A stretch of DNA of 6,958 nt, from the IMG/VR virus record IMGVR_UViG_2554235127_000007. The stretch is one strand, 5' to 3'. This document shows, in pieces, positions 1,192-1,660 of this stretch. The notes beneath the pieces are model-generated. The model saw only the letters and a list, made by a program, of their open reading frames with translations. It was not told the DNA's origin and did no database searches. The translations under genes and the position numbers were made by a program. Source of the DNA: a virus (Duplodnaviria; Heunggongvirae; Uroviricota; Caudoviricetes). Each line of letters opens with the position of its first letter. Position 1 is the stretch's first letter.

Positions 1192-1217
1192 ATATCCAAT
1201 GTGTATGCTGTCGATGC

Positions 1218-1546
1218 TACGCGCGCGTACTTGTCGCAAAATATCAGGCAAAGGCCAGATTCAGAACGTCGTGATAACCACCAGCACAACATGAGATGTC
1301 ATGTAACGCGATTTATCACACCAGATACATGTGATTGGTGTACCCGCATAAAACATTGTCATAGCGCGTCCTGTGCGCATATACGCCGATAATCAACACA
1401 TCGCCACCACTCTGACTTATGTAGAGAACAGTTTTATGGTACTCCCCTCCATCGTGCGCGTACTTGTCTCGAAATTGGTGTTTTGCTGTGGCAGTGATAT
1501 CAGAAAAATCTTCCTGTTTCACATAAAGCGGATATGCGCGTACTGT
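1218..1546. repeat. Four same-orientation copies of the GC-rich motif GCGCGT(A/C)CT(T)GT(C) in an apparently non-coding stretch, with a perfect 12-bp palindrome TACGCGCGCGTA at 1218-1229
   Basis: Read directly. Copies at 1223-1235 (GCGCGTACTTGTC), 1364-1374 (GCGCGTCCTGT), 1456-1468 (GCGCGTACTTGTC) and 1536-1546 (GCGCGTACTGT). The first and third copies extend to about 22 bp with 20 of 22 identical (GCGCGCGTACTTGTCGCAAAAT vs GTGCGCGTACTTGTCTCGAAAT). The copies fall in different reading frames, so this is a DNA-level repeat, not a peptide repeat. Confidence 0.5.
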
Positions 1547-1660
1547 AACGACCCCATCAACGGGGGCGGATTTGAAATCCCGACCCAAGCTATGTACCAA
1601 ATGCCATGTCTTGGATATATGATGATTGCCATTCTAAACAACGCTAAAGGGAGGGTTGGT

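Follow-up and report, generated by a model that had tools for sequence, protein, structure and literature searches.

A 470-bp apparent gap upstream of a sieA-type slot on a P4-like island: probable leader, decaying opposite-strand reading frame and repeat relics

The locus considered here raises the question of what occupies positions 1192–1660 of a 6958-nt stretch of DNA (IMG/VR record IMGVR_UViG_2554235127_000007; the whole stretch is called the window below). The original prediction had described about 470 bp with no convincing gene, four copies of a GC-rich motif and a perfect palindrome, and had proposed a regulatory region for the downstream gene, a non-coding RNA or the remnant of a gene such as sieA. 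The account preferred here, given a probability of roughly 0.58, combines the leader and homology arm of a sieA slot, a neutrally decaying ORF on the opposite strand and the deletion-prone relics of a duplication; region 1192–1660 would be a spacer upstream of a sieA-type exclusion-gene slot, in a P22-type region on a P4-like island. The finding is real but ordinary, a further example of a mosaic-junction or pseudogene spacer. Its main value is corrective: with the apparent 470-bp gap read as a decaying ORF, an exclusion-slot leader and recombination-prone repeat relics, no gene or RNA should be annotated there.

Window positions 1100–1750 were matched at 100% by E. coli chromosomes, and no match to them was obtained in the GenBank phage collection by near or distant BLAST. 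In strain 2018-10-1CC, the locus is part of a ~18-kb island that adjoins tRNA-Thr and proA and has a P4-like backbone (tyrosine integrase, int-alpA RNA, AntA/B, ash, the isrK and C4/CI RNAs and a DUF5906 alpha-type protein). P22-type genes 14, 7, 20 and 16 are carried on the minus strand of the window and correspond to PHROGs 651, 598, 917 and 770, respectively. The setting is thus a P4-like island with P22-type genes and not a complete phage; an att repeat of at least 12 bp for the far end of the island was not found. Left of the gap, the plus strand carries a ribbon-helix-helix gene (435–890; Mnt-like) and the gene for a 73-aa membrane protein (970–1191), and the genes follow one another as in the mnt-orf59a-sieA region of P22, with gene 16 converging. 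The RefSeq annotation of a genome identical over window 1100–1750 is empty at 1192–1618, in agreement with the reported lack of a convincing gene. The further statement that only GTG- and TTG-initiated ORFs occur there holds for ORFs of at least 60 aa but not below that length, given short ATG ORFs of 31, 39 and 57 aa and a minus-strand ATG at 1632.

Hot spots of variable cargo between conserved flanks have been described in P4-like satellites, with homologous recombination as the proposed route of exchange (PMC13586616; PMC8628076). The present locus is similar, a P4-like element with conserved sequence on either side of variable cargo, but the slot is of P22 type (a sieA slot), unlike the described P4 psu-int hot spot, and no sid, delta or psu gene is annotated in the island. 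The island, with its P4-like backbone, P22-type ejection-protein genes and sieA slot, is probably more interesting than the gap.

Homology breakpoints at 1211 and 1664–1666, obtained by BLAST in loci with differing flanks, delimited a conserved module (1211–1663) of 453 bp in the window and 504–508 bp in most relatives, with a GC content of 45–47%. Forty-eight full instances, 32 of them unique, were collected from IMG/VR, metagenomes and genomes. The module was present in 545 of 5426 complete E. coli genomes (~10%) and was also seen in Salmonella protein records. It is therefore a handy marker, lying between two cargo hot spots, for an island found in about a tenth of complete E. coli genomes, and could be used to catalogue the exclusion and defence cargo of that island, SieA homologues included. 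At least four unrelated contexts were found to its left and four unrelated cargo genes to its right, immediately after the GTG; in one locus (L006), homology stops at 1586 and a minus-strand gene follows. A conserved block of this kind, whose neighbours on either side are unrelated from one genome to another, is what a mosaic boundary looks like. Substitution identity within the module was 96–98%, with 2–4 gap openings per 450 bp, compared with 0–2 per 2106 bp in gene 16. The module is less diverged than neighbouring gene 16; this could reflect constraint rather than recent spread and so counts against the preferred account.

Under the modular theory of Susskind and Botstein, boundary or linker sequences reportedly lie at the module junctions of mosaic lambdoid and P22-like phages, and conserved boundary sequences at such junctions are said to have been recognized in the HK620 comparison of Clark et al. 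(2001). The module shares with them the form of a short conserved block between exchangeable modules, with breakpoints at its edges, which fits homologous recombination within the shared block. It differs in being far longer (~450–500 bp) and in containing a dead ORF and internal repeats. The recombination visible in the block consists of deletions between internal repeats alone, and cassette exchange is presumed. The module would persist, in the preferred account, as a carrier of expression signals for the sieA slot and as a homology arm for cassette exchange.

The gene that follows the module (1661–2059, plus strand; ORF list and PHROG match) encodes a 132-aa secreted protein of phrog_2651. 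The cargo classes found in this position comprise this protein, two multi-pass membrane proteins and a 204-aa SieA homologue (slot of L184; phrog_7745; 8e-8 against P22 SieA in BLASTP). Before these four unrelated genes, an identical translation-initiation region was found (1646–1663, plus strand), made up of the Shine-Dalgarno sequence AAAGGGAGGG, the spacer TTGGT and the GTG start, and the shared region, CTAAAGGGAGGGTTGGTGTG, resembles the corresponding region of P22 sieA, CTAAGGAGGTTGGTGTG. The common initiation region and its resemblance to that of sieA show that the sieA slot is 1661–2059 and that its initiation region is formed by the 3' end of the module; the downstream gene should be annotated as starting at GTG 1661, not at ATG 1619. 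The proposal of a regulatory region for the downstream gene was correct for the last 25–90 bp, which serve the cargo gene through a Shine-Dalgarno sequence and a GTG at 1661 common to at least four cargo genes. It gained no support for the motif copies, which are conserved no better than their surroundings and are accompanied by no promoter or terminator consensus.

Neither a sigma-70 promoter nor an intrinsic terminator was matched by consensus in 1192–1660 or in the longer form of the module, so that any promoter can be assigned there by inference only. A candidate, weak promoter-like sequence, TTGGAT-N17-CTAAAC (1611–1639, plus strand), scored below the scan threshold and lies at about the distance of the annotated PsieA of P22, which has been placed within 85 bp upstream of sieA (PMC10461980). 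A 13-bp palindrome, GGATTTGAAATCC (1568–1580), is conserved in the alignment 80–90 bp upstream of the GTG and is a possible candidate for an operator or activator site. By analogy with P22, we infer that the module may contribute to expression beyond the Shine-Dalgarno sequence and the GTG.

The P22 orf59a-sieA interval (NC_002371 13831–14239; 409 bp) is the closest counterpart in layout, with an mnt-type repressor, a small ORF, a spacer of ~400 bp, a sieA slot and gene 16 converging on it. Window and P22 resemble each other around the ribosome-binding site and the GTG, and in both an opposite-strand ORF begins ~30 bp from the start codon of the slot (in the window, its ATG is 28 bp from the cargo GTG, versus ~31 bp in P22). 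The differences are considerable. Detectable homology between the two is confined to ~24 nt of the start region, an intrinsic terminator directly follows orf59a in P22 and has no equivalent in the window, and the GC-rich repeats are missing from P22. The opposite-strand ORF of P22, although unannotated, is 121 aa long and belongs to phrog_1365 (1.4e-39), a family whose homologues keep their length down to 43% identity and share an invariant HECxH, whereas the ORF of the window is an orphan that evolves neutrally.

In relatives with an intact frame, the minus-strand ORF of the gap starts from the ATG at window position 1632 and encodes 123 aa, a form annotated by PGAP in some genomes. In the window, it has been broken into an N-terminal fragment (1519–1632, minus strand; ATG at 1632–1630) and a central and C-terminal part of 94 codons with a TTG start only (1316–1600, minus strand; ORF list). 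The alignment places the severing 1-bp deletion at 1562–1569, where the window reads GGGGGCGG and ORF-intact relatives read GGGGATCGG or GGGAGCGG. In the window, then, the frame is broken by this 1-bp deletion and has also been reshaped by a 53-bp deletion described below.

The alternative that this ORF (83–123 aa in relatives) is a real small gene, of which the window holds a mutant allele, draws on several observations. Codon-usage log-odds were +7 to +9 in frame over 1433–1600, and a period-3 signal (z 2.3–3.5) was found over 1300–1600, like that of neighbouring real genes. Of the 48 copies, 42 keep at least 83 codons from the ATG, so that a short product might still be functional; some genomes carry the PGAP annotation; in the L018 type, the frame is recovered beyond the 53-bp segment through a 1-bp insertion; and P22 has a real gene in the same position and orientation. 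The pattern of change points the other way. Among 31 unique variants, substitutions fell on the three codon positions in a ratio of 18:20:18, 13 being synonymous and 43 non-synonymous, and in one variant the ATG was lost. All neighbouring genes differed, 53–78% of changes in the control genes being at position 3 (gene 16, 87/132; gene 20, 25/47; perC, 14/25; ribbon-helix-helix gene, 8/13). Five indel sites were found in ~500 bp among sequences of 96–98% identity, four of them not multiples of three, and the full frame was kept in 16 of 48 module copies, the remainder having at least five other ends, so that at least six different C-termini are represented. No Shine-Dalgarno sequence was seen on inspection.

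Homology searches yielded no relatives outside the locus. The ORF matched no family in Pfam or PHROG, and the same locus alone, cut in different frames, came back from 5.8 billion proteins searched by word index and from 1.84 billion representative proteins searched in full with phmmer. The longest 'proteins' from these searches were calling artefacts in which TGA had been read as Trp, and an AlphaFold2 model of the 123-aa form had a mean pLDDT of 38.7. A real small gene is therefore judged decidedly improbable. Judged by its substitutions and indels, the ORF is not under protein-level selection and evolves neutrally, and our reading is that it is a dead or dying orphan in the place of a real P22 gene.

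The stretch might also derive by decay from sieA, or from the P22 gene that diverges from it (phrog_1365), since the stretch lies between an orf59a-like gene and the sieA slot and the gap ORF has the position and orientation of phrog_1365 relative to the slot start. A resemblance of 15 residues (GDVLIIGVYA versus GVLHVIGVF) was also seen. The phrog_1365 remnant was rejected for want of sequence or profile similarity, the invariant HECxH included, with a BLASTP E value of 6.5 and an hhalign probability of 4.3%, the latter also speaking against a real gene; searches of six-frame translations with the family by tblastn and hmmsearch gave E>0.09 and no remnant. For sieA, tblastn with P22 SieA against the window and four relatives gave nothing at E≤10 in the module, Orf59a and Mnt were likewise without match, and an intact SieA homologue occupies the downstream slot of relatives. 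A sieA gene would be expected between homologues of genes 16 and 9, with transcription towards gene 16; the gap does lie in that neighbourhood, but the slot is at 1661–2059 and the gap ORF is on the opposite strand. The suggestion of a decayed gene such as sieA is thus right as to a decaying ORF, which is on the opposite strand, and wrong as to sieA; descent from sieA or phrog_1365 is scarcely credible.

With the ORF and the leader assigned as in the preferred account, the GC-rich motif remains to be placed. An exact scan confirmed four copies of GCGCGT[AC]CT on the plus strand, at 1223, 1364, 1456 and 1536, with no further exact copy on either strand of the whole 6958-bp window. The sequence GCGCGTACT occurs exactly three times in the gap, and any 9-mer at three or more copies was obtained in 3 of 5000 dinucleotide-preserving shuffles of 1192–1660. 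The copies were designated c1 (core GCGCGTACTTGTC, 1223–1235; long form 1215–1258), c2 (core GCGCGTCCTGT, 1364–1374), c3 (23-nt long form CGTGCGCGTACTTGTCTCGAAAT, 1453–1475) and c4 (TGCGCGTACTGT, 1535–1546), all on the plus strand. The weakest, c2, could be present by chance alone (p of roughly 0.05–0.1 by our own estimate). Two copies had been said to extend to about 22 bp with 20 of 22 identity; paired long forms do exist at 1220–1242 and 1453–1475, but as 23 nt at 87% identity. The perfect 12-bp palindrome TACGCGCGCGTA (1218–1229) is likewise present, within c1, but is unremarkable alone, ~1.7 being expected per 6958 bp; a second one is found in the window at 2718.

The motif copies occupy the same positions in every related locus examined, and the full module holds five, namely c1, c2, c3', c3 and c4. 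The additional copy, c3', is found in most relatives inside a 53-bp segment that is absent from the window. A sixth, cP, lies ~60 bp left of the window, directly after the perC stop codon and a hairpin. It is similar to c1 over ~47–51 bp (local alignment score 28.5, versus 12.0 ± 1.8 for shuffles), and c3 has 23 nt in common with both. Copies c3' and c3 form the heads of two diverged 53-bp tandem units. The GC-rich motif is a family of diverged direct repeats with a unit of 13–50 bp. Five or six copies within ~320 bp are more than simple decay predicts, which counts against the preferred account.

The copies also mark the ends of deletions. The extra 53 bp of most relatives carries c3' and the palindrome AGTTGCAAAA-NN-TTTTGCAACT, and the window lacks exactly the 53 bp from c3' to c3, the junction lying at 1447–1458 in the alignment with relatives. 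The alignment spans this 53-bp gap in 511 of 546 E. coli records; the short form was found in ~35 of the 546 and in 3 of the 48 sampled copies. Strains 2018-10-1CC and ET761 are of the window form, and CUVET17-1418 and 83972 are of the 508-bp form. In another relative (L143), the left flank of c1 is joined to the right flank of c3, a deletion of 287 bp. Mosaic junctions at c3' in L011 and L025 proved to be only apparent and to represent the two ends of an IS66-type insertion. In the preferred account, the motif copies would be relics of a local duplication that have become end points of repeat-mediated deletions, and they would have no function beyond the instability of the region.

The opposite-strand ORF passes through c4, c3 and c2 in three different frames, which makes the repeat a feature of the DNA and not of a peptide. 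This ruled out a peptide repeat (DKYAR, or WYFxTSTRA), an idea prompted by long database 'ORFs' that are calling artefacts of genetic code 4, with TGA as Trp. A paralogue of perC (VKVEDFGDL versus VKQEDFSDI) was also considered and rejected; no BLASTP alignment was obtained, and the shared part is the 51-bp downstream repeat alone.

Alternatively, the motif copies might be functional sites bound by an island or helper-phage protein (PerC, ribbon-helix-helix or AlpA-type); they would control or insulate the sieA slot or delimit the two cargo hot spots. Same-orientation copies in numbers above chance, present in all relatives, are compatible with such sites, as is the placement of a long copy at the left mosaic junction (1211) and of its sister copy after perC; with no sigma-70 promoter found, an activator-dependent promoter is also conceivable. 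Conservation argues against it, however. The motif cores had 4 variable columns of 39, compared with 39 of 469 in the rest of the module (p=0.56), which is no extra conservation; c3' and c4 vary among relatives, and the most conserved part of the module runs from c3 to the GTG. Natural variants, the window included, have lost whole copies by deletion, and the spacings (141, 92, 53 and 80 bp) show no helical phasing. The motif was found neither elsewhere in the island nor, as diverged relatives, in a scan of 185 579 species-representative genomes, which gave only chance matches in unrelated MAGs. We know of no operator that it matches. A role as binding sites is considered unlikely on this evidence. 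As the relatives are all very close (96–98%), the motif or an RNA could still be under weak selection.

It is a still more speculative and rather remote idea that the GC-rich repeat is a candidate recognition element, either for cassette exchange at the two hot spots or for coupling of the sieA slot to the helper life cycle. Such an element would be bound by a protein of the island or of a P22-like helper and would make an integron-style boundary without an integron integrase. The repeat is ~47 bp long in c1 and cP and shorter in c2, c3', c3 and c4.

A structured non-coding RNA, or antisense target sites for the CI (C4) RNA of the island in the manner of P4 seqA/seqC, would provide another use for the stretch. 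The island encodes C4 and isrK RNAs, and in a single P4-like element (L019) the 23-nt form of the motif lies ~290 nt upstream of the C4 gene, and also upstream of isrK. The non-coding RNA of the original prediction was not upheld, no Rfam match being obtained at E≤1 for the whole window and folding z-scores being +1.19 and +0.45; the whole region and its sub-regions folded no better than shuffles on either strand. The C4/CI loop of the island, UUUCCUUGUACG, has complementarity to the motif limited to GCGUAC, and the best loop-module duplex was −23 kcal/mol, compared with a window-wide mean of −13.8 ± 4.4 and a window-wide best of −32. CI target sites were rejected with these duplex energies at background and GCGUAC alone complementary, and an RNA role of either kind is very improbable.

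An iteron replication origin was considered on account of the several same-orientation copies of a short motif in a non-coding stretch, as in the P4 ori/crr and PICI origins, and was rejected, the GC-rich motif differing from such iterons in its irregular spacing and in having neither an AT-rich core nor a second cluster. A dif/Xer-like reading of GTGCGCATATA at c2 was discarded with 4 of 11 positions of the XerD arm matched by eye. A literature search for the motif strings found nothing, and a search of IMG/VR with a gapped motif-pair pattern was swamped by chance matches in unrelated viruses. A textbook iteron array does occur in relatives next to perC, ~900 bp away, and consists of three copies of GTTGGTTCA, an AT-rich spacer and three copies of TGAACCAAC; in the window, it is partly deleted.

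In the RefSeq annotation, the gene downstream of the module (the conserved block at 1211-1663) was started at ATG 1619, within the region 1619-1663. Where different cargo genes follow the module, the shared homology stops directly after GTG 1661; this codon is preceded by a strong Shine-Dalgarno sequence, and in some relatives a 2-bp indel lies between the two candidate starts. On these three sequence features, GTG 1661 is likely to be the true start of the downstream cargo gene. The slot that opens after this shared GTG, the sieA slot, was compared among loci carrying related DNA (L184, L187 and L189 are cited). 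In L184 it is occupied by a SieA homologue of 204 aa (7455-8069, reverse strand), which matches P22 SieA at 29% identity across 108 aa (E 8e-8), and in other relatives by multi-pass membrane proteins of 116 or 118 aa.

Public protein collections contain 'proteins' of 170-210 aa derived from window 1192-1640 on the minus strand (entries P0008, P0036 and P0012). They require TGA to be read as Trp and are genetic-code-4 calls on short contigs. A gp7-like ejection-protein ORF of 225 aa was identified at window 5648-6325 on the minus strand (phrog_598, 1.2e-69). The identical RefSeq genome lacks this annotation and carries only a 57-aa hypothetical protein at 5648-6325. In phage P22 (NC_002371), an unannotated ORF of 121 aa was located on the opposite strand within the sieA-orf59a interval (13831-14239; 2832-3240 of locus L128), which is 'empty' in the reference record. 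It is a member of phrog_1365 with the invariant HECxH motif, and conserved homologues were found in Escherichia, Klebsiella and Rosenbergiella.

The whole window belongs to a host island that adjoins tRNA-Thr, spans 6650-24770 of locus L031 (NZ_AP021894.1, 3646.6-3664.8 kb) and bears the P22-type genes 14, 7, 20 and 16 and the sieA slot on a P4-like backbone. This backbone comprises int, the int-alpA RNA, ash, isrK with the C4/CI RNA, and a DUF5906 alpha-like protein; about 10% of the complete E. coli genomes carry the island. An att repeat was sought at the far end of the island and none was found; a single literature search returned no description of a P4-like element with P22 ejection-protein genes.

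In three relatives an origin-like iteron array adjoins perC (L006 1521-1641, L030 1649-1770 and L029 2186-2307). In this array, three copies of GTTGGTTCA with a spacing of 9 bp are separated from three copies of TGAACCAAC with a spacing of 21 bp by an AT-rich spacer about 45 bp long. Compared with these relatives, about 105 bp are missing from the window, and only two direct iteron copies (303-311 and 324-332) are therefore left in a remnant at 299-345. This loss suggests that the island copy in the window is replication-defective.

Immediately 5' of the ribbon-helix-helix gene, operator-like repeats (TATAACAGTG, TTATACAGTGG and TATACTGTATGG) were noted by eye at window 385-420, suggesting a promoter autoregulated in the manner of Mnt/Arc.

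Within the module, an inverted repeat, ATCACA-N9-TGTGAT, is found at window 1315-1335. In two loci (L005 and L013) the module homology stops in the middle of this repeat (1327/1328) and is fused there to other prophage DNA. In IMG genome 2529292726 (L011 at approximately 9245 and L025 at approximately 483, the two sides of the insertion) the module is split at repeat copy c3' by an IS66-type element with ends GTAAGCG...CGCTTAC and an 8-bp target duplication, CCATTGTG. The module also contains a Chi site, GCTGGTGG, at 1278-1285 on the minus strand, which is mutated in the L018-type variant; further copies lie at window 611-618, 3512-3519 and 3523-3530.
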